Origin: a virus
Reading direction: 5' to 3' (one strand)
DNA: 64,000 nt
IMG/VR virus record: IMGVR_UViG_3300028042_000003
Location: 42,166 to 106,165 of that record
Part shown: positions 28,929 to 60,480 of the stretch, one piece after another
Numbering within the stretch: the stretch's first letter is position 1
Layout of the letters: each line of letters opens with the position of its first letter
Notes under the pieces: model-generated
Databases searched by the model: none
What the model was told of the DNA's origin: nothing
What the model saw: the letters and a program-made list of their open reading frames with translations, nothing else
Position numbers and translations under genes: made by a program

Positions 28929-29699
28929 ATGAAATTATCAGTACCAACACCAACACTATTCCCAGAAGACAACTCAATACATGCAGAGCATCACTCATTA
29001 TTTTGGGAAAATAAACCCCATGAGATGTTACCACTAGGTGAAGAAGCACCAGGCTTTTTTGAAGAACAAAAACCATTTACGATTTTCAAACTATTCCTTG
29101 GCGACTTTGGAGAAAATGGAAACGGAATGCAGCGTATCATCAACAAACTACAATCAGCAAAACCAGAAGATGTACTTGAGTTTCATATTTCAAGCCATGG
29201 TGGATTTGTAGAAGAACTCCTTGAGCTTTATAACCTTTGTGACACTATGTTCCACGGTAAAGTAGTCACTTTCGTAAACTTTGGTTACTCAGCAGGTGGT
29301 TGGGCATTCCTAATTGGTAAAGAGAGAGTAGTATATGAACACAGTGACTTGATGTTCCACAGTTACTCAGGTGGTGCTTACGGTAAACGTGACGATATGA
29401 TAAACCATCTTGAGCACAGTGATAAAAGAATCAACACTTTCCTTCTTGGAACACTTGAACCTTACTTCACAAAGAAAGAAATTAAGAAAATGAATAAAGG
29501 TAAAGATTACTGGTTGAACAGTACACAAATGCTTGAGCGTGGAATTGCTACTCACATAATGCTAAAAGGGAAAATTGTCCCAGCAGATGAGTTCTTGAAT
29601 CCAAAGTCAGAAAAAGAAAAAGCTAAAGAAGCCAAAGCATTAGAAAAAGCAATAGCAAAAGCGAGAAAAGCAGCAGAAGCAGCAGCAAAGGTAAAATAA
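28929..29699 (+). CDS. ClpP-family serine protease
   Basis: FHISSHGG, GYSAGGWAFLIG (catalytic Ser), LMFHSYSGG (His), DYWLNSTQMLERGIAT. Confidence 0.8.
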   Translation: MKLSVPTPTLFPEDNSIHAEHHSLFWENKPHEMLPLGEEAPGFFEEQKPFTIFKLFLGDFGENGNGMQRIINKLQSAKPEDVLEFHISSHGGFVEELLELYNLCDTMFHGKVVTFVNFGYSAGGWAFLIGKERVVYEHSDLMFHSYSGGAYGKRDDMINHLEHSDKRINTFLLGTLEPYFTKKEIKKMNKGKDYWLNSTQMLERGIATHIMLKGKIVPADEFLNPKSEKEKAKEAKALEKAIAKARKAAEAAAKVK

Positions 29700-29911
29700 T
29701 GACCTACTCTCAAGAAGACCTCAGTAATTACCTAAGAGAAAAATACTTCAAAGATGACTACATGGGCTTCGGCCTGGAGTCTGGGTATTACACTCTTAGC
29801 GTAAACGGTAAAAAATATGAAATCAAAATAGAAACATTCCAGCAATACCAAGACCTCCAGGATTACGTAGAAACTGAATTCTTGAAAAAGTTCCCTGAAT
29901 TGTTTTTGTAA
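29699..29911 (+). CDS. Small PExxL-tailed protein (singleton)
   Basis: Ends KKFPELFL-stop and is followed by a promoter, not a coupled gene. Confidence 0.75.
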   Translation: MTYSQEDLSNYLREKYFKDDYMGFGLESGYYTLSVNGKKYEIKIETFQQYQDLQDYVETEFLKKFPELFL

Positions 29912-41208: not shown

Positions 41209-42378
41209 TTATGGTTTGATTAGTTTGTCTGAGAATATAATATCAGCTTGCATAATGAATGAACTTTTATTGTTTCCTGGAATTGCTTGTGTGTTTGTTC
41301 CTAATTCCACCTCAGTGATACTAGAATCGTATGTGTCAAGTGGGTTTGTTTCCCATGTGTCTCGCACTTTATAAAATATTTTACTTTGACCATCGAAGTA
41401 GTCTTCACCACCTTGTACTATTGTTTCATTATATGGCATATAATAAACAGATGATGTGCCAGCGTTTCCTCTGTATCCCATATAAATTACACCTTTATCT
41501 TCAGAATCAGATGCTGTTCCGCCAGTTACATTGCCGTAAAAATCATGTTGAAAAACTTTTATGTCCCCTATTGTAGTGACATAACCATTTTCGACACCTT
41601 TTGGGTTTATTTTACCACTTGTGAATATATCGGCATCTGAGTGTTGAGCACCGTAATATGTGCTAAGGTAAGATCCAATTTTTGGAGAAACTAAGATCCA
41701 ATATTGACCTGATTTACCAGTCGCTTTGAACAAGCTTTCTCTTAGTTCAGCTATTACACCAATAATTTCTTCCATAGCCGACCAATTAGCTATAGTAGCT
41801 TTACCTTTTTTAGTTGCCACATCAGCAATCCAATCAGTAAAATCTTTATTGATTTTAGATACAATTCTTTGTCTAGCCATACTCAAGAAGAATCTTGCTA
41901 GTTCGCCATTAGGTCCATTCCATACTTCCCCACCCGTTTGGATAAAGTTGTCATAGTTTTCTGGAAAATCACTACCAAATAAGTTTTGGATGTCCTGGGC
42001 TGTTTCGTTTGTTATGTCTAAAATTACTTCTCGGACTTGAGTTTCTGCTAATTTTCTTATTACCACAACGTCATCAACATCAGTGGGTATTTGTGTTCTG
42101 TCTTTCTGTTGAAGACCAAAAACGTACCCAACACTAGAAACCATAGGCTGAACATATGAAATCATATACGGTAAGCTTACAGAAATAGCATTCTTAGTCA
42201 TGATAGTTTTAGGTGCAGTTTTCGCAATATCAGTGGTTACTGTTGCTTGTTGTGATGATGTTGTTGTAGGTGTAACATTTTGAGGTTGACCAGTTCTTGG
42301 GTTCAGAGATGGTTGTGCTATTTGGTCAAAACCTTCTGATTCTTGTATCTGGTGTTCAAAGAGTATTTTTTCGCTCAT
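41209..42378 (-). CDS. Capsid-fold protein (T4 gp23/gp24 family), paralog A
   Basis: VQPMVSSVGYVFGL; IYMGYRGNAGTSSVYYMPY; late promoter at 42400-42407. Confidence 0.75.
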   Translation of the reverse strand: MSEKILFEHQIQESEGFDQIAQPSLNPRTGQPQNVTPTTTSSQQATVTTDIAKTAPKTIMTKNAISVSLPYMISYVQPMVSSVGYVFGLQQKDRTQIPTDVDDVVVIRKLAETQVREVILDITNETAQDIQNLFGSDFPENYDNFIQTGGEVWNGPNGELARFFLSMARQRIVSKINKDFTDWIADVATKKGKATIANWSAMEEIIGVIAELRESLFKATGKSGQYWILVSPKIGSYLSTYYGAQHSDADIFTSGKINPKGVENGYVTTIGDIKVFQHDFYGNVTGGTASDSEDKGVIYMGYRGNAGTSSVYYMPYNETIVQGGEDYFDGQSKIFYKVRDTWETNPLDTYDSSITEVELGTNTQAIPGNNKSSFIMQADIIFSDKLIKP

Positions 42379-42990
42379 TGTATTCCTTATCTTTTTACTT
42401 ATTTATACTTCCTTTAATGTGTTTCAAAGGTATATTATGTTATAATAGTACATAAAAGGATAATAATGAAAGTTCAACTAAAACCAGAAATTTGTAGCGC
42501 ATGGGACGAATATGACTCAAGATGTGGTATGACCTCAGGTATTTGGTACGATATGAAAACTGTACCAAAAGATTTACCAGGTTTGGATGCTTTAGATAAC
42601 CCTGGAGTAGATGTTATTATCCAAAACCCAGAAACACCAGATGAAGCATGGTTTGAGTTATCAGATCTCATTGGTGAAGACGGCGAAATAAACCAAAAAA
42701 ATTATCCAGAATTATATATATAAAGGAACAAAATGAAAGTTCAACTAAAACCATTGATATGTGGAGATTGGCCACCTGGAGACACCAGGTATAATTTGAA
42801 ACCAGGTGTTCAGTATGATATGCACATAACAGAACCTGATTGGGATGGGGATAAGCACATTGCTGCGTTAGCAAATCCCAATAAAAATAGTTCAGAACAC
42901 GCCTATTTCAAACTAGAAGATCTTATAGGCCCAGGTGGATTGGAAGTATCTCAAAAAAATTATCCAGAATTATATCTATAAAGGAACAAG

Positions 42991-43440
42991 ATGATAAGAC
43001 CGACTCGTTTGAATTACAAATTTTTTAGATCATTACTATGGCACCAAAATAAACATCACAAGCATGGCGTTTTTGCGCATTCTTTGAAAGTAGTTTACTA
43101 CCTAATGACGGTAAATAGATATGATTTGGTACCTGCTGGTTTTTTACATGATATTGGTAAGCCATTTGTAGCTTACCAAAAAGACGAAGACAAAGCTTCA
43201 GGTGATTATAGCTTTACCAACCATGAGGAGATCAGTTACCGCCTGATAAAAAACTTCGCTAGTGACAAAACCTGCGAAATGGTAAGATATCACTACCACA
43301 TTAGAGCAATGCAAAAAGCAAAAGAACGTAATCAAATTGGCAAATACAACCGTTACAAAAGACAATACGATAAACTGTCAACAGAGACAAAAGCGGATCT
43401 TAGAGTATTCCTAGCAGCCGATGATTGTGGTAAATTATGA
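42991..43440 (+). CDS. HD-domain phosphohydrolase
   Basis: HHKHGVFAHSLKV...GFLHDIGKP...HEEISY...RYH...ADD. Confidence 0.8.
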   Translation: MIRPTRLNYKFFRSLLWHQNKHHKHGVFAHSLKVVYYLMTVNRYDLVPAGFLHDIGKPFVAYQKDEDKASGDYSFTNHEEISYRLIKNFASDKTCEMVRYHYHIRAMQKAKERNQIGKYNRYKRQYDKLSTETKADLRVFLAADDCGKL

Positions 43441-45032
43441 TTGCCAAACCAGAATTTGATATCAACAAAATCAATGCTGGTGATACCGTCAAATGGAAAG
43501 ACTTAGGTGGAACGATATGGAAATCTCAGGTTATTGAAGTCAATTTGAAGCTTGGTACTGTCACTGTTGATTATGTCAACAGTTCAATAATTCTGTTAGC
43601 TTATAGAATACTTGACTGGTACACTAAAGAATCTCATCCGGAGTATTACTTATGATAATAGGAAGAGAAAGAATAGAAATAAGAAAAGTAAGAATCAAAT
43701 CACTGAAGCAAATCATAATGGACTCCAAAGGATTGTTACATGACACCCAGGTTAGACAATCAACTATAGACCAGAGTTCATTAGTTTTTGTGCCAGAAAT
43801 GGAACATCTATGTGGAACTGTTATTGATACCAATAGCTTATTTACTATTGGTAGCATCAAAGCTTGGAAAATAGATGAGTGGATGATAGCAGAAGAAATC
43901 ACCCAAGAAGATTATCCGGAGTATTACCTATGATAAAAGCAGACCTAATACACAAACATTGGTATCACGTCAGGTTGGGTATAGGACCTGAGGTAGTACC
44001 ACTACAACACGCCAAAGCATACGGGCCACCTAATACTGCTTGGTTTATTGGACCTAAAAAAAGTGTTCATATAAGCAGAATAGTAAAACATCTCTCACCA
44101 GATGATTACCCAGAATATTATCTATAAAGGAAAATTATGTCAAGAAATCTTATACTAGAAAGAAATGTAGGAACTTATTACTCCGTCAATGATGAGCTTT
44201 ATATTTTAGAAACATTTTCAGATGACCCAAGCACAGTGGTAGGAAGTTTGAGCTATCCAGGTCGGTTATTCAAAATGCATACCGTTTACCCAATAGTGCT
44301 TAGGGTTAGCAAAAATGGAATTACTGCTAGTGGGGATACCGCGTTTGAAGAGAATAAAGAAACTCACCCAGAACATTACCTCTAGGTTTAATGTTCGTGT
44401 AAGGTATATTATGTTATAATAGTATAACAAGAAACAGAAGGAGAACATATGAAACAAGGAATAATAAATCAACAGAATTTAGTATTTATTGAGTCAGCTT
44501 GGTATAATACGGTAGGTTTTGTGTTAGCCCAAGATGCTATTACCAGAGAATACAAATGCTACACCCACAAATTAGGTGGTGACCGTAATGACGATTACAC
44601 AGAAGATCAAGATATCAATAAGATACTTGCACATGGGAGTTACTTTCCACTTGAAGCGGCGAAAGCAATTTTTGCTTATGACACCAATAAGGATTTCATT
44701 TACGAAAATCCAGAATTATATCTATAAAGGAAAATTATGAAACTAAGACTAAAATACAACAAAATACTAGACTCATACTACATTGAGGAAAACTATGGAT
44801 TCTTCTTTTGGTCGCATGTTCAAGGACCATCGTTTACAATCGAGCCAAGACCAAATAGCGATAAAAAGTTAGTGTTCCCAGATCTACCAAGACCGTCAAT
44901 GCCAACTTTTGATGGTGGGTGGTACTTCAAAAACTATGACATAGCTTTACAAGGAATGCGAGATATGCTAACAGAATGTGAAAAAGCCAACGCAAAAGCT
45001 AAAGCCCACAAAATTACCAAAATGGAGACAAA

Positions 45033-45527
45033 ATGCTAACAAATTTACTAAGAAATGTACCAGGCTCAATCACTTGGATGGTTGTAGTATCAATCTTGAT
45101 GTGGTTCTTTACTTTTCAACTGGGTATCGTTTTAGTTTTGGTCATAATGACCTTCCTTGTTTGGGGTGGAGCAATAGAAGGCCTTCACTTAAATGACGTA
45201 AATTATGGTCATTTTATGCTTCTCGTTTCACTGTCGGTAATTGGCGGTTGGTCTTATTACAAAATTGATACATTCGTAGAATATAACAAAATAGTATCTG
45301 TTCAAAAAGGAACAGATTATAATGTCACGTATGACATAAACTCAGATAACATTACCATAAGACTAGCTACTAAACATAAAATAGTAAAATCTATAACAGT
45401 AAGCAAAGACAACCTAGAAAGAATAAAAGACATCACAGATGGTAAGTTCACCCTAGAAAGAAGAAAGTACAGTACATGGTATTCCCAAAACCTCGGGTTC
45501 GAAACTACATTCAAAATGGATAAATAA
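45033..45527 (+). CDS. Membrane protein with three predicted TM segments
   Basis: Hydrophobic N-terminal ~80 aa. Confidence 0.6.
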   Translation: MLTNLLRNVPGSITWMVVVSILMWFFTFQLGIVLVLVIMTFLVWGGAIEGLHLNDVNYGHFMLLVSLSVIGGWSYYKIDTFVEYNKIVSVQKGTDYNVTYDINSDNITIRLATKHKIVKSITVSKDNLERIKDITDGKFTLERRKYSTWYSQNLGFETTFKMDK

Positions 45528-48482
45528 TGAACAATTACACCCAAGAAAAAACTAGACTTTTATTGGTAAATCAAATATCAATAAAAACATTAGCAGATCA
45601 CATCCAAAGTGGTGGATATCTAACAAGTCCATTTATGGAGCTTTTCAAAGATTATCTAAATGAGGTGTCTCCAGTGATGTTCCCTTTAGCTGTTCCACTT
45701 GGAATTATAGAAATCTTAGTGTTGAAATATCGTCTAAAAAATGTAAGACAAAAATACCCAGAAAGGTTCCTATGAAAATATTTGGCATAATAAAAAGAAC
45801 ACCTAAGTTCCTAAAAGACACCATCGGTGCATTCACAAAAGAGTGCATAAAGGACTTGTCAAAAGAAGAATACCTAGAGGTCAAAGAAGCTTTTGTAATA
45901 ACACAAGACCAATCACCTAGAGAACAAATAAGAGAAAGTTACAACTTCGGTTGGTTTGGTGAAAATTTAGCTACTGGAGTTATGCAGCTAATGATGTGGT
46001 TTTATGGGTACAAAGCTTGGAGATTTGAGAAAAAATACCCAGAGGAATTACTATGAAAATTGACATTCACTCTACTGACCACCAAAAGTTCAGAGAAATA
46101 GTTTTTGGTGGGTATACTATAAAAACTTACGAAGAAGCTAAGAATTTTGTCAAAGAACTCGAAGGAGACTCAGATGTACAAGAAAATGGATTGTATAATG
46201 CCCTAAGAAACCCAAAAGATAAAAAGATACTAACTTTTTTTCTTTTTATCTTTCTGAAACTAATGATTATCTTTTTAGTATATAAAATAAATAAATTCAG
46301 AAAAAAATACCCAGAGGAGTTATTATGAGAATAAATTTTATAGACCGTGAAAATCCAGAAATGAGTGATTTTTTCATTAGGACAGAAAACATCGCCCAGG
46401 ACATTCCAACAGAATCAAAAACTGGTCTTCTCGAAGTTTGGAAAAGTGAGAAGCTCCAGGAGTACAAAGAAAGAAACATCAAAATACGCGCTTTGGTTGC
46501 TCAAAATAAAGAAACCCTAAAAGAAATAAAAGAAGGGTTCAATGAATTCGTCAAGGAAGAATACCCGGAGATGTTCCTATGAACCTAAAAGCCCTAGAAA
46601 CTCAAATTGTTGATGTATTATCATCTACGCCAACCAATACAACAGGTAAAGCAATTGGTTCGATGTCGACTGAAGAGATAATCCAAGAGTTCAGAGTAGC
46701 TTGTGAGCAAAATCTTGATGTAACTAGGGAATTTATTCTAGTTTATGTGAATCTAAAAAACCCAGAAGCCCAAGAAATAATCCAAGTGGAGTACCCGGAG
46801 TATTTCCTATAACCTTCGTGTAAGGTTAGGTGTGTTATAATAAGTAAAAAAAAGGAGCACCAGTGAAAATAAAAGTAAATGACAGAATCAAAATAAAAGA
46901 TGGTGTTTACTATGTTGAAGATAAGGTTGGTATTGTCAATCATGTGTACAAAGACGAGATACGATGTGATTTTCTTTACACAAAAGGTGACACCCAAAAC
47001 CTAAGAGTAGATCGCAACGATATAGAAGAACATCTAAATAAAGAAACCCATCCAGAGTATTTCCTATGATAGAAGCTATTCAAGGAAACATTTACAGAGT
47101 CAAACTAAGAGAAAATGAACCAGAGGAAAGCTGGATGTTGTGTACAAAAACAGTCAAAACAAAGTATTATTTTGACATACTCAAAACAAATTGTGGTTGG
47201 GAAACTGTAAAGAAAATTTGGTACACAAGAAAAAACTTCAATGAAATTCATGATGTGATTGAAGTTTTCAATCCAACAGATTACCCAGAGTATTTTCTAT
47301 GAGACAAGTAAAAGTAGGAAACATCTATAAAAACCGCTGCGGTCAAGTAGTGAAAATAACCAAAACGAGTGATGAGTTAGCAGACGTGGATGTAATAAAA
47401 AGTAGTAAAAATTTAGACATGGAGCCATATAATTTTTGGATGGCTTCTGGTTCAAGGTGTGATTCAAGCTTATTAGAAATACCACTACACAAACAATCGG
47501 ATGATGATGTGCTAATAGACCAAGTACTAACAAAAGAAGATTATCCAGAATATTACTTATAAGGACTAAAATGGACGAATACAAAAAGAAAGAATTCAAA
47601 AGGTGGACCCAAGCTAAAGTCAACGATGTGGTTGTGTACAATTATGACCCAGAAGAAGACAACACAAACTACATCGGATTGATAAAAAATATCTCCCAAG
47701 AGGGTGTGTACATTGATGATCTTTATTGTATAGAAAATAAAGACGAAAATATAGAAGAACAAATTCTAATAAACGAAACAAATGTAGATATATTTATTTT
47801 GGTAAAGGTATTGTATAACCACAAACCTTTACTAGAAACCATCCAAGAAGATTACCCGGAGTTTTTCCTATGAGACCAGGCGAAGTGTACAGAAACAGAA
47901 GAGGAGACATCGTCCAAATTATGGCAGTAGATAACGATCTTGCGCATCTTGAAGTTATAAAATTCAAGAACCCCAATCAACCTGGACCAAAAAGGTATAA
48001 TTTTTGGTCAAAATCTGGGTCGAGATCATATGGAAGATATAATCACCCAAACGACATCATTGAGCGCCACCAAAAACAAGAGGATGTAATATTGATTATC
48101 TTATCAAAAGAAGATCATCCGGAGTATTACTTATGATAGATAACTTCAAAAAATGGCAAGACCTAAAAGTAGGGGACGTCGTTCTTTACCGATACGACCC
48201 AAAGGATTCAGATGTTTTGTTTATTGCTTGCATCACTGAAAAAACAGAAGAAAAGGTAGAGTTTTATGATATTCATTCGTTTTCTGAATATCTAGAGCCA
48301 GAACCAGAGGTGTTTGTAAACGCTGTGAATGAAGATCATTTTATTCTAGAAAGGGTACTCATGCAAGCACCTTCTATTTTATCGGTGGTAAAAACAAGAT
48401 TTCCGGAGTTATTCCTCTAGGTTTAATGTTCGTGTAAGGTATATTATGTTATAATAGTACATAACAAATAAAAAGGATACAA

Positions 48483-49901
48483 ATGAAAACACAAGAAACT
48501 AAAAATTTACCAATTGATAGAGGACCGTACGAGGAAACTTTTGTCAATATGATGAGTTCACCTAAATATGTACAACAACACTTTTATGCGTTCGTAATTG
48601 CTAAAATGCAAGTATCGATAAACAGAAGTGTTCCAACAGCAGGTGCTGGGTTTTATGATAATAACTATCAATTAGTTATAAATCCAGACTTTTTCAACCC
48701 ACTGCCACTTGAGCAAAGAATGGGTATTCTAATCCACGAAGTAGATCATATTATTTTACAACACCTTGGAAGAAAAGGTGAAAGAGATCATAAATTATTC
48801 AACGTGGCTTGTGATATTGCATTGAACCAAATGATACCAAAAGATTGGTTACCAGATGGTGCTTTATATCCAGAGACTTTCAAATTACCAGATGGTAATT
48901 TTTGGCCAAAAGATCTAACAGCTGAACAGTATTACCAATTAGCTAAAGACGAGAAAGATAAGCAAGAGAAAGAAAAAGACGACCAAGACACAGAAGAAAA
49001 ATGTGATAACTGTGGTGGTTCTGGAGAAGAGCCACAAGACGGTGACCAAGAAGGCGAAGAAGGCGAAGGTGAAGGCCAAGGCGAAGGTGAAGAAAAAGAA
49101 GGTAAAGAACCTTGTAAAGAATGTCAAGGTACAGGTGCTAAACCTGGAACTGGATTCCAACCATCAAATGGTAACCCTAACCTTACTGGACAAGAAGAAA
49201 TCACTATTGATTCACATGATATGTGGGATAAAATGTCAGACGAAGACCAAGAAATGGCTAAAGAGATGATGTCAAAAACATTAGAACAAGCTATGGAAAA
49301 GTCAAGAGGTAACGCTCCAAGTAACATTGAAATGATTATGGAATTATGGAGAAAGAAAGCTAAACTTAGTTGGAAACGTATTTTGAAAAAGTACCTTTCA
49401 AGTAAAAAGGGTCAACGTGTAGCAACAATCAAGAAGAGAAACAGACGTATTAGAACCCTTGGAGTCAAAGGTTCAAAAACAGCGTATGATACTCCAGAAG
49501 TAGTTGTTGGTCTTGATACCAGTGGTTCAATGAGCAACGAAGAAATTGCAGAAGCTTTAGTTGAGATCAACGAAGTATGTAAAATTTCAAACAGTAACTT
49601 GAAATTGGTTCAAATTGACACTACCATAAAAGGTCTAGAAGAGTATGACCCTAAAAAGAAAAACTTCAAAAGACGTGGTTGTGGTGGTACTTACATGGGC
49701 GCAATGGCTAAATTCTTGAAAGATGAAAAGATAAAGTATGATGTGCTAGTAATGATCTCAGATATGTACATTGAAGATGTATCAACAGATGAGAACTGGA
49801 AAGGTCTCAAAAAACCAACACTATGGTTGAACACAAGTGGCGCCGATGTTGAATGGGATGGTCTAAAAAACCACAAAATTTATAACATTAGTGATGCGTA
49901 A
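48483..49901 (+). CDS. VWA-domain protein with N-terminal metallopeptidase-like HExxH domain (MoxR partner)
   Basis: ILIHEVDHII...FNVACDIALNQ; VGLDTSGSMS MIDAS; GCGGT; SDMY. Confidence 0.85.
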   Translation: MKTQETKNLPIDRGPYEETFVNMMSSPKYVQQHFYAFVIAKMQVSINRSVPTAGAGFYDNNYQLVINPDFFNPLPLEQRMGILIHEVDHIILQHLGRKGERDHKLFNVACDIALNQMIPKDWLPDGALYPETFKLPDGNFWPKDLTAEQYYQLAKDEKDKQEKEKDDQDTEEKCDNCGGSGEEPQDGDQEGEEGEGEGQGEGEEKEGKEPCKECQGTGAKPGTGFQPSNGNPNLTGQEEITIDSHDMWDKMSDEDQEMAKEMMSKTLEQAMEKSRGNAPSNIEMIMELWRKKAKLSWKRILKKYLSSKKGQRVATIKKRNRRIRTLGVKGSKTAYDTPEVVVGLDTSGSMSNEEIAEALVEINEVCKISNSNLKLVQIDTTIKGLEEYDPKKKNFKRRGCGGTYMGAMAKFLKDEKIKYDVLVMISDMYIEDVSTDENWKGLKKPTLWLNTSGADVEWDGLKNHKIYNISDA

Positions 49902-52900
49902 TGAGAATCCAAGATAACCAGGTATACAAAACGATTGGTGGCAATATGGTAAAGGTCACCAAATCGGACAAACCAGGGGACTCTTTATGGCCGTTTAGTG
50001 GTACCATCAATGATGTATTCATTACCTGGAGCATTATGGGATGTGCAAGTGCTCAGATAAACTCTCCCAGCAGTACCCAAGAAGCTTATCCCCATAACCA
50101 TAATTTAGTAGAACACCTAAAACAAGAAGAATACCCGGAGTATTACTTATGATTGAAAATGCGCTAAATAGTCAGCTAAAACCTGGACTTTGGAAGATAG
50201 AGTGGGACGGAACTGTTGAACACTTCGAGCATATTGTTGAGTGTCGTTTGATATCAAACAGAAAAAGACTAAAAACACTGAAACAAGTAGCCGGTAAGCT
50301 AAATGAAGAATATTACAATAACTGGTCGTTATCAAGAAACATGGAGGCCCAAGCAACATATATTGGACCAATAGAAAATTACCCGGAGTATTACTTATGA
50401 GATTCACAAAAGATGATATTGGTACATTGGTAAAGGTCTATGATAATCTCCAGCATGAAACATACTATCCAATAATTGAAGGCTTTGATGATAGCGAGTT
50501 ACCAATGAACTTGTCAGTAAATGGTGAAGATTGGTTATCGTTCAACATAAATGGAAGATGGGGTGAATTTGAAATCACAAAAATCTACCCAAAAGAAAAA
50601 TATCCGGAGTATTACTTATGAGAAAAGAAAGACCAGAAAAATTTACAAAAGATGATATCAATTTAGTAGTTCAAGTAGAAGTTTACGACAACGACGAATT
50701 GAATCACTCTATAACGGCTGAGATAGTTGAGTTCAATATTGACAATGGTGAGAATCACCCATTACGGGTCAAAGATATCAATTCAGGTTCTGGGTTTATA
50801 CTAAAAGATGATGGTACATGGAAAAATGAATCAAGCAATTTATTCATTGAGATCACAAAAATATATCCAGAAGACAATTACCCGGAGTATTACTTATGAG
50901 ACAAAAACCAAAAAAAGGAGACTACATCAAAACACTAAATGGCATAGCTAAAGTTTATGAGGTTCATACCGCCAACGGAGCAAATCCCGTTTATGCGTAT
51001 GCAGTTAGATTCCTGGAGTTTCAAGACACCAGTGTAATACCTGCGTCTGCTATTCTTGAAGTTCTCAACTTAGATGATTACCCGGAGTTGGTGTTATGAG
51101 AATGTTCAAACCAGATGAAGTATATCTACTAAAGAATAACAAGATTGCTACCGTTGTAAATGTATTTTCTTATTCGGTAGACCTATTGATAGATGGAAAG
51201 ATTGTGATTTTTAGTAGTTACGGTGAAAATAAGATGGAAAATTACCGAAACCCAAACCTTGGGTTTGATTATGGTATTGTTGGCACAATCAACCTGGAAG
51301 AATTCCCGGAGTACCAATTATGATTGCTAATATTGGATGGATACTAGAATTCAAAAATGAGTTATGTGAAGTTATTGATATAGATTATTTCGAAACCGAT
51401 GAATATCTTATTAGAATAATCTCAGACAAAAGAGAATTTAGAGTAGGTGGATCTGAACTTAGACCACCTGACCCAATAAAATACCCGGAGACAAGTTTAT
51501 GACAGAAGAATTTATCGCTACATCAAATCACAGCAAAATACCAGCACCTATTTTGCTAAAGTTTTCTATTATTGGTATTGATGTTTATTCAAACCTGAAC
51601 ACCAAAGGAACAGTAGCTAATTTTTTTAGAAAAAAGGCTACATCAAAAGGTGAATACCCAGATGGTAATCATATTGGTTACATTCAATACGAAAACGTCA
51701 ATGACCTATACGAGATCTTTGCGGCAAGATACCCAGAGGAGACACTATGAATCCACCCATCCAAACTGACATCATAAGAGCAAATAGTCAGACCATAACA
51801 AGCATATCCCAACTTTATGTTGGTGTTTTGCTTTTAGAAAATAAAATGATCGCCGAGATAACAAAAATATCCAAAGATGGAATTGCTTTTGTGGTAGTCA
51901 ATGACGATTCAACAACCCCTTGGAGTCGAGGTCAAAACGGAACAATCAACACAGAACAATTCCAAGAAACTCTAAAGGCAGGTGACCATACGATGGTTAT
52001 AATAGGCAAAAAAGAAGATTACCCAGAGTTTTACCTATAAGGACAAAAATGAAAAAGAAAAAACTAAGATATGAAAGATACGCTAAGTTTATGGAACCAG
52101 AAGAATACAGAAGAATCAAACCTGGAGACATTATCCTTTATAGAGCTGATTTTATTCAATTATCCAAAGCTAAAGTTGCTTCGGTATGGGGTGGATGGGT
52201 TCTTATCAAAACAAACCATTGGCAAAAGCGTGTATATTTTAGCCAAATAGCAAAAGTTGTAACAAGACAATACCCAGAGGAATTACTATGAAACCAGAAC
52301 ACTACAGAGAGCATGACCTAAGACCTGATTCGGTTTCAATGAAAATTTTTAGGAACTTAGACTCATTAGATTGTATCGTAGCAGGTGGATACTGCTTATC
52401 TAAAGTTCAACGATTATACGGAAACCTTGCTTCTGAATATAATGATATTGATGTTTTTGTTCTAACGCAAGAAAGCTACAATGAAGTTCATAAAGTTCTT
52501 TCTAAGCTTGGTGTTTTAGATTATGATACCATATTAGCTGCTTCTTTTACTGTACAAGAGATAGGCCAAATGCGCCAAAGTGTTCAACTCATAAAACCAT
52601 TTAGGGATGTTTCTAGCTATGATGAGCTAATAGAAGACTTTGACTTGGATAATAGCAAATACTGGACTTATGCACCATGGAACAAAATTTACACAAAACA
52701 AGCAAACACTAGACTTCATGTTGTCACTCCAAATAAAAAAGTAAAATGGAATTATCACTTCTTAGAAAGAATGTTGAAATACCAAAACGAGAAGAAACTC
52801 CAACTGGATTTTGACCAGTATCCTCAGTTACTTGGTCTAATAAAGAGCACCAATAAAGAAAGATACAATATGGGTCCAACAGAATACAACCCAAAAGATC

Positions 52901-53229
52901 AAACAAAATACCACCTGGATAATGTATTATTAGAAATGATCAAAGAGGTTCTCAAAACAAGAAATCAAATCAGCAAGAAAATAGATAAAGAAACCCAAAT
53001 GGGAAAAGCTGGTTATATGCATCTCCAAAGAATTATGGAGCGATCACATGATATGCTAAGTTTATCTAGTGTTTCTATTTTCTTGTTTGATTACTGGGCC
53101 CAAGAGGAATGTCATACTGCTAAAGGGAATGATCTGGTTGTGGCACTTGGAGCAAAACTATCAAGCAAAAAATATTATCTAGCAAATCTAGGTAGGGTAA
53201 AAAGAACATACCCTGAATTATTATTATAA
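49901..53229 (+). other. Array 3: eleven consecutive ORFs ending PExxL-stop (49901, 50149, 50397, 50618, 50896, 51096, 51320, 51499, 51747, 52049, 52288)
   Basis: C-termini YPEYYL x4, YPELVL, FPEYQL, YPETSL, YPEETL, YPEFYL, YPEELL, YPELLL. Confidence 0.9.
52288..53229 (+). CDS. Nucleotidyltransferase-superfamily protein (CCA/poly(A)-polymerase head-like) carrying the PExxL tail
   Basis: IVAGGYCL...EYNDIDVFV (GG..DxD), VQLIK, IEDFDLDNSK. Confidence 0.65.
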   Translation: MKPEHYREHDLRPDSVSMKIFRNLDSLDCIVAGGYCLSKVQRLYGNLASEYNDIDVFVLTQESYNEVHKVLSKLGVLDYDTILAASFTVQEIGQMRQSVQLIKPFRDVSSYDELIEDFDLDNSKYWTYAPWNKIYTKQANTRLHVVTPNKKVKWNYHFLERMLKYQNEKKLQLDFDQYPQLLGLIKSTNKERYNMGPTEYNPKDQTKYHLDNVLLEMIKEVLKTRNQISKKIDKETQMGKAGYMHLQRIMERSHDMLSLSSVSIFLFDYWAQEECHTAKGNDLVVALGAKLSSKKYYLANLGRVKRTYPELLL

Positions 53230-53299
53230 AAAGAATTTCAATAAAAGGCTAGGTTTAATGTTCGTGTAAGGTACTTTATGTTATAATAGTACATAACAA

Positions 53300-53333
53300 G
53301 AAGAACTAGTAAGAGTTACTAGACAGACTTCAT
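53300..53333 (+). other. Conserved 5'-UTR stem-loop, copy 2
   Basis: GAAG-AA-CTAGTAA-GAG-TTACTAG-ACAGA-CTTC-AT upstream of the AAA ATPase RBS. Confidence 0.6.
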
Positions 53334-53350
53334 ACTAATAAAGGATAAAA

Positions 53351-54466
53351 ATGAAAATTTCAAAAATCAAAGTAGCTATGGATATAGCACAAGCAGCAAA
53401 TGATAACGTACACATGATTGGACCACATGGTATTGGTAAAACTGAATACGTGAAAGCGTGGGCAAAAGAAAAAGGTTATCACCTTGAGGTATTACAACTT
53501 CCAATTCTTGAGACATCAGATCTTATTGGTATGCCTGATATTACTGAAACAGAATTTGGAAAAGTTACTGTGTTCGCAAAGCCTGAATGGTTAGTTCGTA
53601 TGGACCAAGCAAACAAAGCTGGTAAGCACTGTGTAGTATTTATGGATGAACTTGGTCGTTCGAGTATGGAAATTAGACAAGCGTCTCTTCAAATTGTACT
53701 TGAGAAAAAAGTTTCAGAACATGCACTTCCAGAGTTAGATGGTATCCAGACATTATGTGTCGTTGCCGATAACCCAAGTGATACTTATGATACAGCTGAC
53801 TTTGATGCAGCACTTGAAGATAGATTCCAAACTTACCCAGATATCACAGCAGATATCAAAGACTGGTTGAAGTATGCCAGAGAAGTTGGTGTTGAAGCAG
53901 TAGTAACTGACTTCTTAGCAGAATACCCAGAAAACTTACACTTTGTTGATGAGTCAGATGGTGAAAAGGGTTCAAGCCCAAGAGCGTGGAAGAAACTCTC
54001 AGACGGTATGCAAAAATGTACAGATAAAGGGTTCATGAGAACACTTATCGTATCAAAAGTTGGTAAAACAGTAGGTTCAAGTTTCAATCACTTTTTCAAC
54101 AACTACATTGATATTGTAAAACCTGAAGATGTACTTGAGAATATCGGTAAAGCGTCTATCGCAACTGAGAAAGACCAAGAGAAAGCGGCTAAAAAACTTT
54201 CTAAGTTGACTAAAGGTATCGAGGTTATCTCAGCACAAGAGTTAGCACAGAAAATTATCGCTAATATCAAAGAAAACAAAGAAGGTTTCACAAACGAGAC
54301 AATGATTGTTTACTTGGCTTCTATAAACCTTGAGACTGCAGCAGCAATCCTAAAAGGTTGGAAAGATGGGGACAAAGAAGAAACTGAGTTTTACTACGGT
54401 GGATTCATAAAAGGACAGCCTAACAAATGGTTGATTCGTAAAATTACTTCTAAAGTAACACAGTAA
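53351..54466 (+). CDS. MoxR-like AAA+ ATPase
   Basis: GPHGIGKT Walker A, ETSDLIGMP, VFMDELGRS Walker B, ADNP, FDAALEDRF, SPRAW. Confidence 0.88.
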   Translation: MKISKIKVAMDIAQAANDNVHMIGPHGIGKTEYVKAWAKEKGYHLEVLQLPILETSDLIGMPDITETEFGKVTVFAKPEWLVRMDQANKAGKHCVVFMDELGRSSMEIRQASLQIVLEKKVSEHALPELDGIQTLCVVADNPSDTYDTADFDAALEDRFQTYPDITADIKDWLKYAREVGVEAVVTDFLAEYPENLHFVDESDGEKGSSPRAWKKLSDGMQKCTDKGFMRTLIVSKVGKTVGSSFNHFFNNYIDIVKPEDVLENIGKASIATEKDQEKAAKKLSKLTKGIEVISAQELAQKIIANIKENKEGFTNETMIVYLASINLETAAAILKGWKDGDKEETEFYYGGFIKGQPNKWLIRKITSKVTQ

Positions 54467-56469
54467 TGAAGTGGGGTATAAACCCACCGAGGTTCGCAGG
54501 TAGTCAAGTTTACTACCGGGACTTGGTGGTTTTTGCTGTGCAAGAAAATTCAGTTATAGGAGCAGAAAAGTTTGACCTTGACGGTTTTTCAAAACCAATG
54601 TCGACTTTAGATATTGAATTCAACCCTCTTTTGACAACAGAATTCAAAGAGATTCAACACCCAGTTGAAAACATCACAGATAATATCGTTCGGACTACTT
54701 GGTTGTTCAACAGTAAAGAAGAAGCATTTATTCAAAAGGTAGTCTTATTGGCTCATATCAAAGAGTACTTTTACAAAAAACAAATAGAAGATAAGAAATA
54801 CTTCGATACCAAAATACCTAAAGATATCAACACAAAGCTAGAAAAATTACAAGAAAAATACCCAGAGGTTATGTTATGATACACGCAAAAGTCAATACAG
54901 CACTTAGGTTATCAGAAATTTTAGGGTTGAATGTACGATATAATTCAGCTGAAAACCTTTATTTTATACAAAAACTAGATGAGTGTATAATTGTTCCAGC
55001 TGATAAACCTCAAGTGGGTGTTCTTAGATACCTAAAAGAACACCACCCAGAGGTAACACTATGATTCCAGAATCATTGAGCCCAAGAGACTATCAAATTG
55101 GTAAATGTTATCTAGCTAAATGGAAAGATAACAGAAAAGATCTTTGGATTTTTGCACCCATTGAAAAACATGACGTTTATATTACTTGCAAAGACATAAT
55201 AATTCTAAAGGGTGATACACCAATGGATGAATATGATATTTATTATGATACCAATAACGCATTTGAAATTGTAAAAGAAGTATCAAAAGAAACCCATCCG
55301 GAGTATTTCCTATGAAATTTGTCCTAATACAGCCAAAGGAATGGTTCGAGAAAAATGCATACGAAGACGAAGACGGAGATTATTGGGGATCAGAAAAACA
55401 GTATAAAGCATATAAAAAAGAACTAAATAAAGACTCCCATGATTCAGAAAAGTTACATAAATTATCTACCTACTTTTGCTTAGACAATACCCTTTTGGAC
55501 GACTGGTATGGTATTGTTGATATTACCAATGAGCAAAAGCAGTATTACGAATGGGCAGTAAAGAAAAAGCTCCCAAAATCTAAATACCCGGAGTATTACC
55601 TATGAAAAAACACGATATTATCAAACTATCAAGCCCAACTTTTGAGGGTGTTGGTATCGTCATTAGAGCCTCTGGCACTGCAATTAGTTGTCGAACATTA
55701 CACCAAATAACCGAACGAAGACCTACCGATAGATTTGTCTTCTCAACGGATGACGTAAATATCAAGTTTGAAATCCTACCTAAAAAAGATTACCCGGAGT
55801 ACCACCTATGAAAAAACACGAAGCACCAGAAAACCAACAGCATCTTTTCGATACTGAACTTTTCGCATACAGACGGAAGTCACCTACTTATGCTAAATTC
55901 ACCATAGAAGATATACGCGGCTTACCTGAAAATGGTTATGGTTCTGTTGTTACTCTTGTTGTATCAAAAAACGGTAACCGAAAGAAAACGCTTTATACTG
56001 TTCAGTTTGCTTGTGAGCTTACTGATTGGGGTTATAAGTTATTCAGTACCAAAAATAAGTGGAGCACCAGTTTAGGTGAACACTTCCAAAAAATGGAAGC
56101 TTCAAAAGAATACACCAATGATGCAAGAACCACCTCATCGTATAAAAAAGAACTACAAGAAAACAAAGACAGATTCCCGGAGTACTGGTTATGAGCATGA
56201 TAGACGTGACAGACATGAAATCACTACAAGATGGCTTACCGACGATAAAGGAAGGTGATGTGTTATCCATAATGTGGAATGATGGAAACCAAGAAATAAT
56301 CGCAGAAGTGATGGTATCATCCACAACTGGAATAAGAACAAAAGACCTAAGAGTTCTACAAGGTAAAAAAAGCTACAGTAAAATTGGAGCTAGAGGTTTC
56401 TATGAGAATCTTGATACACACTATTATAGATCAATCGATATAAAAAAATACCCGGAGTACATATTATGA
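54466..56469 (+). other. Array 4: seven consecutive ORFs ending PExxL-stop (54466, 54876, 55061, 55312, 55602, 55808, 56191)
   Basis: C-termini YPEVML, HPEVTL, HPEYFL, YPEYYL, YPEYHL, FPEYWL, YPEYIL. Confidence 0.9.
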
Positions 56470-56657
56470 TACAAATAAACAAAACTTACCAATACAATAA
56501 AAACGATTTACAATTTACCTTTAGAATTTTCTCGGAGGGGAAGCTGAGTTACCATATCATTACCGAAACTTTTGATTTGTATAAAGTCTCAAAAACAGAA
56601 ATGATAAATAACTTACAAAACAAATATATTCATTTATATAATAAGGAAACCAAATGA
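56466..56657 (+). CDS. Hypothetical protein (untagged)
   Basis: Coupled to the preceding gene by an ATGA overlap. Confidence 0.5.
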   Translation: MIQINKTYQYNKNDLQFTFRIFSEGKLSYHIITETFDLYKVSKTEMINNLQNKYIHLYNKETK

Positions 56658-57055
56658 AAATAAAAACAACAGACTTATGGAAACATATCGGAGAAATAAT
56701 CCTGGTTCCAGAAGACCAAAGATATGATATAGACGAAATGGATGAAGTGAACTTACCAAGAGGTACATACCAAATAGTAGAAGTACATGACTTTGGTGCG
56801 TTATTTTATGACATCGCGAATAATGTTTTAGTAGATGCCGATTATCTACAAGATACAAGTTTCACCTGGATCATAACACCACCAATGGAAAGACTTGAAC
56901 TTCTGGAAGATGCGTTGACTAAGCACATTCTTGGGTTATCGGCTGAGGGTTGGAAAGAAATAGAAAACCCAACTGAACACAGCCTAGACTTGACTCCGCT
57001 TTTAGCTAAACTCAAAACGGTTCAAATTATGAGAAAAAGTATCGAAGAGTTATAG
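56654..57055 (+). CDS. Hypothetical protein (untagged)
   Basis: AAGGA RBS; ORF within the operon. Confidence 0.6.
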   Translation: MKIKTTDLWKHIGEIILVPEDQRYDIDEMDEVNLPRGTYQIVEVHDFGALFYDIANNVLVDADYLQDTSFTWIITPPMERLELLEDALTKHILGLSAEGWKEIENPTEHSLDLTPLLAKLKTVQIMRKSIEEL

Positions 57056-57289
57056 ATGGCACTGCACAAAACAAACCAACCCAAAACCACTGAAATCGTT
57101 GTAACTTTTATTAGTAATGACGAAATGAAGAGATATGGGTGGGATGAGTACAGACATGATTTCCCTGAAATTGTCAATAGGAGACATTTCATTTATAGAA
57201 AGAATGGCACATTCCTTCCGGCGTACATGGTAAAGAAAGAATACACTCTAGAAGAAGGTCAGGAGAAGTTCCCTGAACTATTTCTGTAG
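57056..57289 (+). CDS. Small PExxL-tailed protein (singleton)
   Basis: Ends EKFPELFL-stop, followed by a promoter. Confidence 0.75.
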   Translation: MALHKTNQPKTTEIVVTFISNDEMKRYGWDEYRHDFPEIVNRRHFIYRKNGTFLPAYMVKKEYTLEEGQEKFPELFL

Positions 57290-57339: not shown

Positions 57340-58113
57340 ATGGTAAACATAATGGAAATATTTGGCTCGATTCAGGGCGAAGGTGAGAGAACCGGATACC
57401 CTAGTATCTTTGTAAGAAGTGGATTGTGTAACTTCACGTGCGAAGGCTTCGGTGTAGAATATAAAGACCCCAAAACGGGCGAAAGGAAATTTGGGTGTGA
57501 TTCGTATTACTCAGTCAACCCTGGTTTCAAAAAAGATTGGTCTTCTTATGTAGATTATAAAGATTTAGTGAAAGATATACTCAAAGAGGTCCCAGATTAT
57601 GGTGATTTTAGTATGACAAAAGCTGATATCGTCTTTACCGGTGGTGAGCCAATGATACACTGGAATGATGAGGTATATCAAAGAACCTTAGCTTATTTCA
57701 TCAGTAGAGGACACCATGTCACTATTGAAACAAACGCAGCAATGGATATTGAATTTACAAGAGAGTACCAAAAGAAGATTCAGTTTTCGCAATCAGTGAA
57801 GCTCAGTAATTCAGGGGAAGCTAAACACAAAAGAATCAATATTGAAACACTCACAAAAATAGCAGAAAATGCTCCTTCTTCTTATTTGAAATTTGTTATA
57901 GCTAAAGATACATGGGACGTAGATTTCAAAGAAATCAAAGAAATTCTAGAAGATATTCCGGCTTATGTTCAAATTTGGCTTATGCCTTTAGGCGATACAA
58001 GAGAAACAATGGCATATAATCAAATGTTCACATTACAGAAATGTACAGAGTTAGGTTTCAACTATGCTCATAGAGTTCACATTACTTTATTTGATAACGA
58101 GGCTGGCGTATGA
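57340..58113 (+). CDS. queE: 7-carboxy-7-deazaguanine synthase QueE (radical SAM)
   Basis: EIFGSIQGEGERTGYPSIFVRSGLCNFTC..GCDS, VFTGGEP, TIETN, HRVHITLF. Confidence 0.9.
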   Translation: MVNIMEIFGSIQGEGERTGYPSIFVRSGLCNFTCEGFGVEYKDPKTGERKFGCDSYYSVNPGFKKDWSSYVDYKDLVKDILKEVPDYGDFSMTKADIVFTGGEPMIHWNDEVYQRTLAYFISRGHHVTIETNAAMDIEFTREYQKKIQFSQSVKLSNSGEAKHKRINIETLTKIAENAPSSYLKFVIAKDTWDVDFKEIKEILEDIPAYVQIWLMPLGDTRETMAYNQMFTLQKCTELGFNYAHRVHITLFDNEAGV

Positions 58114-59720
58114 CAAAGAACATGACTCTAAGATATATCCCTAGTGCATTCCAATCGGCTGGGTCTTTTCTTACTGTTCACAAATATTACCCAAAACTAG
58201 CAGAAGATATGCTACTTGGGTTGGCTAATCAACACAAAGATATTGATATTGGTGTTCTATACAATGCGTTCTCAGAGAAATCAGACGCACCAGAGTTCAA
58301 TGCTATTTGTCGTCCTTTGGGCATAAAACAATATGCTGATTCAGGTGGACTCCAGGTTATGTCAATAGGTGCAGAAATTACTCCAGAAATCAAAAAAGAG
58401 ATATTTCATACTCAAATGGATAACTGCGATTACGCAATGTCATTTGATGAAATACCAGTTGGTTCAACACAAGAGGGTGAAGGTCTAAGACAAATGGACA
58501 CAAGATTCTTTATTGATGAGTGGTTCAAAACAAAAGCTATAGAATCAGGTAAAAATATTGTAGAGCAAATCAAAGTATTCAAAAAAGATCCAACTTCAAA
58601 AGCAAAAATCTTATTTATTATACAGTCAAGGAATTTTAAAACAGCAAGAGAGTGGTCTTGGTTTATGTTCCAAGAAATCAAAAAAGAACCTGATTATGAG
58701 AAATATATAGGTGGGTTAGCACTTGGAAACACCGGAGCTGGTGGACTAAGAAATGTTATTGACTTTACACTTAGATTCCAAAACGAATTAGACTTTTTAC
58801 CACTAAGCTGGAGAAAGAAAGTTCACATCTTGGGTGCTGGTAGTGTCAGTAGATTACTTGGTGCTTTATGTGTCTCAGATGAATATTTCCTACCTGGAAC
58901 TACAATTACGTGTGACTCCACTACACAGACAAGAGGACCAGTTTTTGGAAACTTTTTACTTTACCACCCAGAAACAGAATCTATGGAAAGCATTAGTCCA
59001 AGCAGAGGAATCAATCCTGAGAGTCTAAAAATGTGTGAAGCTCAATGGAAATATGCTAAACCGTATTTTGATAAGCACAAAAATGAGTACAGTCTTATCC
59101 CAACTGATGTTGATGACTTTAGAAATCATTACACAGAATATGCGGATAATGGACTAAGAAAAAAAGTTGATTTTGTTGATCTAATGGGCAAGTCAGATGA
59201 GTGTGATTATGAATACAGTAAGCGTTCTAGAATGTCGAGGTTCTTTTGGGCGATGACAATGATGCATAGTTTCTTAGATTTTATAGAATCTATCAAAGAC
59301 CGTTCAGATAAATATAGAGCAGGTAACCATGCAGAGCAGGTAAAAATACTAAGATCTCTAAAGCGAAGTTTACCTCAAAAATTATACAAGCCAGCAGAGA
59401 AACTTATGGCACTAAGATCACATAATCAGTATATCCAATCAGAGAATTTAGCTGGAAGTGGGCATCCTTATACGACAATACTCCCTATAGAGTCTCAGAA
59501 CGACGTCATTGACGGGATATTAGAGTACAAAGGCACCAAGTATCAAACGGATTTATACCAAGGACAACTTCTTGGACGTGAATTAGAGTCACTTACAGCA
59601 GGAAAAGACGAGATGTTCCCAAAAGACACCAGAAGCAAAATACTTGTTTTATTACAAGGGCTAGTCTTAGATGTTCAAAAAACAGAAAAAATAACAAAGG
59701 TAGAATTAGATGAGTGGTAA
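58110..59720 (+). CDS. TGT-fold transglycosylase, DpdA-like DNA 7-deazaguanine insertion enzyme
   Basis: YADSGGLQV, MSFDEIP, FIIQ, GGLALG, HILGAG, TCDST match TGT-family motifs; lies between queE and folE. Confidence 0.75.
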   Translation: MTKNMTLRYIPSAFQSAGSFLTVHKYYPKLAEDMLLGLANQHKDIDIGVLYNAFSEKSDAPEFNAICRPLGIKQYADSGGLQVMSIGAEITPEIKKEIFHTQMDNCDYAMSFDEIPVGSTQEGEGLRQMDTRFFIDEWFKTKAIESGKNIVEQIKVFKKDPTSKAKILFIIQSRNFKTAREWSWFMFQEIKKEPDYEKYIGGLALGNTGAGGLRNVIDFTLRFQNELDFLPLSWRKKVHILGAGSVSRLLGALCVSDEYFLPGTTITCDSTTQTRGPVFGNFLLYHPETESMESISPSRGINPESLKMCEAQWKYAKPYFDKHKNEYSLIPTDVDDFRNHYTEYADNGLRKKVDFVDLMGKSDECDYEYSKRSRMSRFFWAMTMMHSFLDFIESIKDRSDKYRAGNHAEQVKILRSLKRSLPQKLYKPAEKLMALRSHNQYIQSENLAGSGHPYTTILPIESQNDVIDGILEYKGTKYQTDLYQGQLLGRELESLTAGKDEMFPKDTRSKILVLLQGLVLDVQKTEKITKVELDEW

Positions 59721-60480
59721 AAAATTTACGGACAGAGCACAAGCTCAAATGAAATATGTCAAAGAGGGTTACAACCCTAAAGACTTCGAAGAATACTATG
59801 ACGAATATCTCAAATGCCCAGCATTCAAGATCAACCAAAACGTAGAAGAAGTAGGCGGCATCAGTGAAGAAGCTCATTTTATTATGCGCACTATAGCCCA
59901 AGAAAAACTCAAAGAAGTTTTTGAAATTATGAAAATAGACCTAACAGATGATAACGTCACAGAAGATGAATCTTTTGGTAACATTGGAACACCAGGTAGA
60001 ATCATCAAAATGTGGACAGGTGCTGGATTACATGACGACCGCGAATTACTTTCAGGTAGATGGTCTAAAAAGCCAAGATTAGCTAAGTTTCCAAATACAC
60101 ATGATACTCATATTCCAATCACCAAAAGGGTAGATCTAACTGCCGTTTGTTCACATCACATGGCACCGTTTTCTACTACATTCAGAGAAGATGCTTATGC
60201 TGTCATTTCATATATCCCAGCTGATTTTGTGTTGGGTATATCTAAACTACAAAGACTTACTGATTGGATTTCACAACGTGGATGGTTGCAAGAAGAACTC
60301 AGCCAGAAAATTTATCAAGAGATAGCAGAAGTAGCAGAAACTGATTCTGTTTACGTCAAGCTTTATAACGTGGTTCATACTTGTGAATCTCTAAGAGGGG
60401 CAAAATCAAAAGATGGCGCGTTTACCTCAGAATACTACGGCGGGAAGTACAAAAAAGCAAAGGTTAGAGCACAGCTTTAA
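59710..60480 (+). CDS. folE: GTP cyclohydrolase I FolE
   Basis: TPGRIIKM, VCSHHMAPF, LGISKLQRL, RGWLQEEL, HTCESLRG. Confidence 0.92.
   Translation: MSGKKFTDRAQAQMKYVKEGYNPKDFEEYYDEYLKCPAFKINQNVEEVGGISEEAHFIMRTIAQEKLKEVFEIMKIDLTDDNVTEDESFGNIGTPGRIIKMWTGAGLHDDRELLSGRWSKKPRLAKFPNTHDTHIPITKRVDLTAVCSHHMAPFSTTFREDAYAVISYIPADFVLGISKLQRLTDWISQRGWLQEELSQKIYQEIAEVAETDSVYVKLYNVVHTCESLRGAKSKDGAFTSEYYGGKYKKAKVRAQL

Follow-up and report, generated by a model that had tools for sequence, protein, structure and literature searches.

A phage-encoded MoxR AAA+ ATPase and VWA-zincin partner, candidate handlers of a C-terminal tail shared by unrelated early proteins

Introduction

What handles a large set of otherwise unrelated phage proteins that all end in the same few residues? 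The question is raised by a 64,000-nucleotide stretch of viral DNA (positions 42,166 to 106,165 of the IMG/VR virus record IMGVR_UViG_3300028042_000003; hereafter the window), on whose + strand runs of open reading frames (ORFs) end in PExxL immediately before the stop codon. Among these runs lie a VWA/metallopeptidase gene (48483-49901) and a MoxR-like AAA+ ATPase gene (53351-54466), and an earlier reading of the sequence alone (the original prediction) proposed that their products recognise the tail. We refer to ORFs and proteins that carry the tail as tagged, and to the two genes as the pair. To our knowledge, few AAA+ machines are as poorly understood as MoxR/VWA pairs, and we know of no client for the phage versions.

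A phage MoxR AAA+/vWA pair with an N-terminal metallopeptidase has been described in the "group 2.2" jumbo phages, where a role in virion assembly with structural-protein processing was proposed (Iyer, Anantharaman, Krishnan, Burroughs and Aravind 2021, PMC7824862); that paper mentions no connection to a common C-terminal tail on early proteins.

In this study we find that the pair is the best candidate for a tail handler, being the only genes found wherever the tail occurs, and we put the probability that it handles tail-bearing proteins as a class at about 0.4. Within the module, the pair falls into a sub-clade that accompanies the tail [YFH]-P-[E/Q/H]-x-[FYL]-[L/I/V]-COOH. The phyletic link between tail and sub-clade is strong in one direction, and the mechanism behind it is one that we infer.

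Results

The two genes encode a MoxR AAA+ ATPase and its VWA partner

The gene at 48483-49901 (+ strand) encodes an untailed protein of 472 amino acids, in which a zincin-like metallopeptidase domain is joined by an acidic low-complexity linker to a VWA domain with a metal-ion-dependent adhesion site (MIDAS). It matches PF13203 (DUF2201_N, 6e-23, 82 bits), PF09967 (DUF2201, VWA-like, 4.8e-9) and phrog_1314 (3e-70). In an alignment of 70 homologues, H85, E86 and H89 of the HEVDH motif (residues 85-89) are invariant and H94 is at least 90% conserved in the zinc site, while N107, D111 and N115 are also invariant. An HExxH site with a third ligand marks the protein as a predicted zincin peptidase. 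The full MIDAS motif (D345, S347, S349, T403 and D427), which includes residues of the DTSGS at 345-349, is invariant in the same alignment. The structural model has a predicted local distance difference test score (pLDDT) of 85.5, and its best fold matches are the VWA domain of NorD, integrin I domains and the Rea1 MIDAS domain. The Pfam and PHROG matches, the invariant HExxH and MIDAS residues and the NorD/Rea1 fold thus bear out the assignment of this gene as a VWA/metallopeptidase.

The gene at 53351-54466 (+ strand) encodes an untailed protein of 371 amino acids with a match to phrog_1297 ("ATPase", 2e-48) and weak matches to AAA/AAA_5; the Pfam AAA_5 match reaches 27 bits against a cut-off of 22, and those to AAA_3 and bpMoxR fall under their cut-offs. 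The catalytic residues are invariant in 16 homologues, namely Walker A G27-G29-K30, Walker B D99-E100, sensor 1 N141, the arginine finger R158 and sensor 2 R211. In the AlphaFold2 model (pLDDT 87.8) a helix-2-insert hairpin (62-75) follows helix 2, short strands (119-134) precede sensor 1, and a helical domain of about 120 amino acids forms the C-terminal part. A helix-2 insert and a pre-sensor-1 β-hairpin are the features by which the MoxR class (clade 7, AAA_5) is defined (PMC7159879). A profile search with the protein gave the Midasin AAA domains as best match (1.5e-28) and MoxR 2r44 at 3.5e-10, and the top Foldseek matches were NorQ (1.4e-11, template modelling score by target 0.65-0.68) and CbbQ2 (6l1q). 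The catalytic residues, the helix-2 insert and these matches confirm the MoxR-like assignment that had been made from the letters alone.

Furthermore, a VWA partner is encoded in every genome with the AAA gene, and the trees of the two proteins are congruent. By sequence and fold, the two genes are a true MoxR AAA+/VWA pair. They represent a known phage chaperone/co-chaperone module, which is here split over two operons with the early-type promoter of the tagged arrays.

The tail is a selected peptide

In the window, 48 ORFs on the + strand end in PExxL and none on the - strand. The IMG/VR viral contig to which the window belongs (G000; 125 kb, estimated completeness 70%) has the same ending on 58 of 292 + strand ORFs of at least 40 amino acids, as against 0 of 299 on the - strand. 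Even in the looser form P...[LIVMF]-stop, the background is about 1% of ORFs in untagged phages. The full motif spans about 10 residues, with K/R, E/K and Y/F/H ahead of the proline. Across the tagged genomes we collected 499 distinct tagged proteins, nearly all of them unrelated (families have at most 2-3 members) and most 60-140 amino acids long; up to a quarter of a proteome carries the tail. Some tagged proteins are enzymes, such as a 490-amino-acid UvrD-like helicase ending in PEEFI (L109:9378-10850), and a tagged 283-amino-acid DNA-polymerase-B fragment of the contig G001 ends in PEYRI (L013:4573-5424). A literature search for the tail motif returned no relevant report, and the searched text of the genome paper of Pv27, a phage of the phiKT1024 group, mentions neither the pair nor a common C-terminal end.

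The tail varies by lineage. Its last residue is L in G000, G002, G014 and L201, I in phiKT1024, G004, G001 and G016, and V or I in G026, G030 and G003. The residue after the proline is mostly E; one lineage has Q instead (PQYFI) and another has H (PHLFL). Such lineage-specific variants fit a reader that differs between phage lineages. Besides 42466-57289 and 20020-22768 of the window, loci with variant tails are L198, L203, L199 and G026. The last of these mixes 37 PE and 15 PQ tails, the PQ form being mostly found on one paralogue family that contains leucine-rich repeats and ends in GKEHFPQYFI.

A common ending of this kind could be read by no protein at all. It might be a by-product of ribosome-binding sites and ATGA coupling, or a common 3' end for cassette shuffling, and the link to the AAA and VWA genes would then be meaningless. 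Several features of the DNA speak for such an origin. The Pro-Glu codons CCG-GAG of most coupled genes are at the same time a ribosome-binding site, GGAG standing about 8 nucleotides before the next gene's ATG, which overlaps the stop codon (ATGA; for example at 49901-50152); the last codon, NTA, is forced by this overlap; and exact copies of 18-21 nucleotides recur in the window. Codon use was therefore compared between tails that overlap the next start and tails that do not. In G000, Glu is GAG in 36 of 39 overlapping tails and in 7 of 20 non-overlapping ones; the corresponding counts are 29/33 and 9/45 in phiKT1024, and 10/12 and 2/24 in G001. Without an overlap the tail persists with Glu mostly encoded by GAA and Pro by CCA or CCT, codons that form no ribosome-binding site, and a separate site follows the stop codon; all four Pro codons are used in tails. 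Moreover, the substitutions are conservative in the protein (Y/F/H at -6, F/Y/L at -2, Ile encoded by ATA, ATT or ATC), and the tail persists across genomes of 28-43% G+C and also closes operons, beside promoters. Because codon use shifts with the overlap while the peptide stays, the tail is a peptide and not merely a nucleotide signal. It is a selected peptide whose use as a ribosome-binding site is secondary, and we consider it very improbable that no protein reads it.

Tagged genomes carry the pair

Tag-bearing contigs were located by the DNA pattern of the tail alone, which gave about 40 tagged viral contigs; for homologues beyond the first few, alignments and tag patterns outperformed single-protein scans of IMG/VR. 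All eight pattern-found tagged contigs that are at least 50% complete (G001, G004, G016, G026, G029, G010, G038 and G045) contain both the AAA and the VWA gene, and so do two further tagged genomes, G000 itself and the cultured Vibrio phage phiKT1024 (81 tagged ORFs). The genomes with tail and pair cover no fewer than two phage backbones that are unrelated. Among tagged fragments less than 50% complete, 6 of about 31 have one or both genes, as expected for pieces. Either gene is found in 0 of 14 untagged controls, namely contigs of at least 50% completeness that these scans had matched by chance. Of 50,697 GenBank phage records, 257 have the AAA gene and 148 the VWA gene.

We also compared all ORFs of G000 with five near-complete tagged genomes (tblastn, 1e-4), and only the AAA and VWA genes were matched in all five. 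The backbones of these genomes are very different, comprising T4-like myoviruses, an AD45-P1-like backbone and the distant G001. G016 is AD45-P1-like, with 30 ORFs in common with that phage and only 7 with G000, and G001 has only 14 ORFs in common with G000. In 10 of 13 tagged contexts the gene directly 3' of the VWA gene carries a tag; the genes in this position are mostly non-homologous to each other.

For the most part, the copies from tagged phages group together in both trees, in a clade supported at 87/88 (AAA) and 91/91 (VWA). The copies from AD45-like phages nest within the T4-like ones, which suggests that pair and tail moved together between backbones. Other untagged copies (JA-1, VBP47, PhAER-3, the rV5-like AlexBoehm, a provirus and others) are placed elsewhere in the trees.

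The pair also occurs without the tail

Several observations weigh against a link between the pair and the tail. The pair is present in phages in which tags are absent, namely AR9 (0 in 251 kb) and JA-1 (0), and in the provirus G005, where 113 kb hold 1 tag match, a chance-level figure; there are no tags around the pair in VBP47, PhAER-3 and the rV5-like AlexBoehm, and the more distant members of the pair, in AR9, N4-like and rV5-like phages, are likewise without them. The AD45-like backbone keeps the pair while the number of tags runs from 54 (G016) through 24 to 4 and 3; AD45-P1 has 3 tags against about 0.25 expected, and G029 likewise few (3-4 in the two). No tag lies within 10 kb of two close homologues of the VWA gene, at 60% and 51% identity. 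AR9, which has no tags and a long branch, is placed within the tagged clade of the VWA tree; in the AAA tree it is next to that clade, and there G001 is not part of the clade but of an unresolved fork that also contains AR9 and G006. The counts in favour of the pair have limits of their own: the eight tagged genomes represent perhaps 2-3 independent lineages, the 14 controls are smaller phages and proviruses and are not size-matched, and the shared-gene search at 1e-4, made with a contig only 70% complete, could miss a small, fast-evolving or divergent reader.

The 51%-identical VWA gene (L202/G037) lies in a 2.4-Mb metagenome-assembled genome bin of NCBI (GCA_029935075.1), other contigs of which (C199, C307 and C334) carry arrays with PE tails. 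The bin is probably a set of phage fragments or a mixed bin of host and phage.

Because the pair occurs in tail-less phages and is kept in the AD45-P1-like lineage as tags drop to 3, it performs, or is able to perform, a function for which no large set of tagged proteins is required. The expectation of the original prediction, that the AAA and VWA genes would co-occur with the tail across phages, therefore holds from tail to pair (8/8 tagged genomes against 0/14 controls) and fails from pair to tail.

These observations can also be explained by mere co-residence. The pair would do the job that it does in tail-less phages, whether early chaperone or processing work or the virion assembly proposed by Iyer et al. 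2021 (PMC7824862), the tail would be read by a host hub or protease or by a small, fast-evolving phage protein, and both would travel in an exchangeable early-gene pool of marine phages. The many tail-less phages with the pair, its retention in AD45-P1 and G029, and the reach of the tblastn search are all in line with this explanation. It is harder to reconcile with the 8/8 against 0/14 co-occurrence, with the match of only the AAA and VWA genes of this phage across such different backbones, and with the clustering of the tagged phages' copies in both trees. Lineage-specific tail variants within one gene pool are, in addition, harder to square with a conserved host reader, and the pair of AR9 follows an annotated early promoter, a poor fit to a purely late role in assembly. 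We regard co-residence as about as likely as handling by the pair, somewhat short of an even chance.

Operon layout and promoter-like element

The arrangement of the genes bears on the same two explanations. The VWA gene is preceded by a promoter-like element (48418-48465, + strand; TAGGTTTAATGTTCGTGTAAGGTA ... TATGTTATAATAGTACATAAC) with an extended -10, TGTTATAAT, and a second copy (53250-53297, + strand), identical over 48 nucleotides, is followed by a leader of about 50 nucleotides and the AAA gene. Each gene thus starts a promoter-headed operon, as had been predicted. Additional copies lie at 19959, 44383 and 60472 (0-3 mismatches in the half-patterns searched; 0 expected in shuffled sequence), of which those at 19959 and 44383 precede tagged arrays. 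Since the same element heads both, the pair appears to be controlled like the tagged genes, which is what a reader would require.

Behind the VWA gene follow 11 ORFs ending in [YF]PExxL-stop (49901-53229, + strand; 60-97 amino acids, the last 313), mostly with ATGA stop/start overlaps, and behind the AAA gene 7 ORFs ending in PExxL-stop (54466-56469, + strand). The counts of 11 and 7 in the original prediction are exact, as is its statement that neither gene is tagged: the VWA protein ends in ...YNISDA and the AAA protein in ...SKVTQ. The same block includes upstream tagged arrays (42466-48420, + strand, 19 tagged ORFs, with the element copy at 44383), and a separate tagged array lies at 20020-22768 (+ strand), headed by the copy at 19959.

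The original prediction drew on the embedding of the pair in tagged arrays and on its place at the head of operons with tagged runs. Both observations are real, but as arguments they are weak. In the block from 42.3 to 57.3 kb, 37 of 45 genes (82%) are tagged, so that any gene there is flanked by tagged genes, and adjacency is also what co-residence predicts. Likewise, the promoter is not special to the pair, because the element also heads operons that open with tagged genes. One of the eight untagged products of the block is an HD-domain protein (149 amino acids, 42991-43440).

The distance between the two genes differs between genomes. They are 3.4 kb apart and in separate operons here, 46-100 kb apart in phiKT1024 and G001, and adjacent in AD45-P1, AR9, JA-1, L198 and L203. 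For the tagged ORF directly 3' of the AAA gene (54466-54879, 137 amino acids), a related contig has a tagged homologue at the corresponding place (L201, 18157-18651; 43% identity). In phiKT1024 and G004 the slot after the AAA gene is held by a different protein of 309-379 amino acids, and the tail of the G004 copy is degenerate (YAEYFI).

About 40 ORFs of G000 are shared, at 25-50% identity, with phiKT1024, Va1 and Pv27, T4-like phages of Vibrio to which the contig is related; the region 48000-55000 of the window has no DNA-level match among GenBank phages. Directly 3' of the tagged block, 57340-60480 encodes a protein with a weak radical-SAM match (under the Pfam cut-off, possibly QueE-like), a 536-amino-acid protein with no Pfam match and a GTP cyclohydrolase I. 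By its gene content this region looks like a 7-deazaguanine (queuosine-type) base-modification cluster, and its first two genes have homologues in G001. Elsewhere in the window, a ClpP-like protease gene (PF00574, 2.4e-10; probably a prohead protease) in 28929-29911 is directly followed by a single tagged ORF (29699-29911) ending in KKFPELFL.

Other candidate readers

Three other ways of reading the tail were considered and rejected. A sliding-clamp-binding tail does not fit the set of tagged proteins, as PolB, a clamp-loader subunit, the DnaB-like and UvsW-like helicases and a sigma-like protein have no tail. A phage ClpP as the general reader is not consistent with its distribution, since there is a true ClpP in phiKT1024, no more than weak ClpP-like matches (probably prohead proteases) in G000 and AD45-P1, and none in G001. 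A T4 prohead-protease motif (L/I-x-E) within the tail was dropped because position -10 is not hydrophobic in G000; presumably, AD45-like phages also have no T4-type prohead protease.

Discussion

Relation to known MoxR/VWA systems

Among the closest known systems are the pairs of the group 2.2 jumbo phages, which consist of the same two families, an AAA_5-type ATPase and a DUF2201_N zincin with a DUF2201 VWA domain, both encoded by the phage. In AR9 they are g028 and g029, and, as noted above, they lie behind an annotated early promoter in that phage, which has no tail, unlike the phage of the window.

The best fold matches of both window proteins are NorQ-NorD and CbbQ-CbbO, whose rings have a helix-2 insert and a post-sensor-1 loop (PMC13036017, PMC9976466). 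On the NorQ ring the extreme C-terminus of NorD docks, and its last two residues are essential (PMC13036017). Binding of a free C-terminus by the post-sensor-1 loop in NorQD provides a structural precedent for a MoxR ring that reads a C-terminal end. The precedent is partial, however, and this also counts against a tail reader: what the rings of NorQD and CbbQO read is the C-terminal end of their VWA partner and not the C-termini of clients. In addition, NorQD acts on a single client (cNOR) to bring about metal insertion, NorD is without a peptidase domain, and identity to the window proteins is only 13-17%. The phage VWA proteins (48483-49901 and its homologues in L198 and L203) share a conserved C-terminus of their own, ...HK-I/V-x-N-I-x-x-A, which is unlike the client tail. 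By analogy with NorD, it may be with this end that they dock on the AAA ring.

The best sequence-profile match of the AAA protein leads to Midasin/Rea1, a giant single-chain eukaryotic protein, whereas the window pair consists of two phage proteins. The MIDAS domain of Rea1 captures its clients, the ubiquitin-like domains of Ytm1 and Rsa4, via a conserved acidic residue. In the tail the residue after the proline varies between E, Q and H, and G026 has both E and Q. This variation speaks against the classical capture of that residue by a carboxylate-to-MIDAS-metal contact and makes an obligatory contact of the Midasin/Rea1 type unlikely. More generally, VWA MIDAS sites are held to bind extended peptides (PMC7159879).

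The MoxR-vWA ternary conflict systems (Kaur, Burroughs, Iyer and Aravind 2020, PMC7159879) likewise combine MoxR, vWA and zincin with fast-diverging small proteins and a conserved C-terminal peptide (FxSxx-COOH-type). They are bacterial conflict systems with extra effector components, in which the peptide is released by cleavage, whereas here the setting is the early region of a lytic phage, the motif is different and there are dozens of tagged genes per genome. A short free C-terminal peptide on unrelated proteins that is read by one machine is also found in the ssrA-type degrons (ClpXP) and in the clamp-binding tails of T4 gp43, gp55 and gp33. Their sequences are unlike the PExxL tail, and here the core replication proteins (PolB, clamp loader, helicases) are untagged.

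A possible mechanism

If the pair does handle the tail, we infer that a pore loop or the VWA domain would recognise it. Either the peptidase-VWA protein would capture the free hydrophobic C-terminus, in its cleft or at the face of its MIDAS, or the AAA ring would, at a site to which C-termini dock. ATP hydrolysis would then remodel, release or deliver the client, or hand it to the zincin for clipping or degradation. A complex was predicted from the peptidase-VWA protein (70 aligned sequences) and a 40-residue piece with the tail (55 aligned sequences), together with Zn and Mg; the score of 0.03 against a mark of 0.32, from a run without controls, weighs neither for nor against binding. Among the columns of the AAA alignment, those that track the E/Q/H tail type showed only lineage-specific differences, and there are too few independent switches.

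A more far-reaching version can be formulated, in which the tail and the pair form a tag-and-reader system. The tail would be a lineage-tuned C-terminal address on mostly small early proteins of several marine phage lineages, and a dedicated MoxR AAA+/VWA-zincin machine would remodel, clip or destroy them as a class. We hold this version to be unlikely. If it were true, the pair would resemble FtsH in split form, an ATP-dependent protease or unfoldase that has a degron of its own and through which the phage times the control of its early effectors.

Significance

Even if the pair is not the reader, its strict co-occurrence with the tail narrows the search for one. If the tail marks clients of the pair, each phage would at once offer dozens of candidate substrates, the rule of recognition would be simple, and phiKT1024, Pv27 and Va1, as phages of Vibrio, would provide a cultured system in which to test it. 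The common C-terminal end of early phage proteins that are otherwise unrelated would then have an explanation too, and the uncharacterised small genes of large marine phages would become more accessible.

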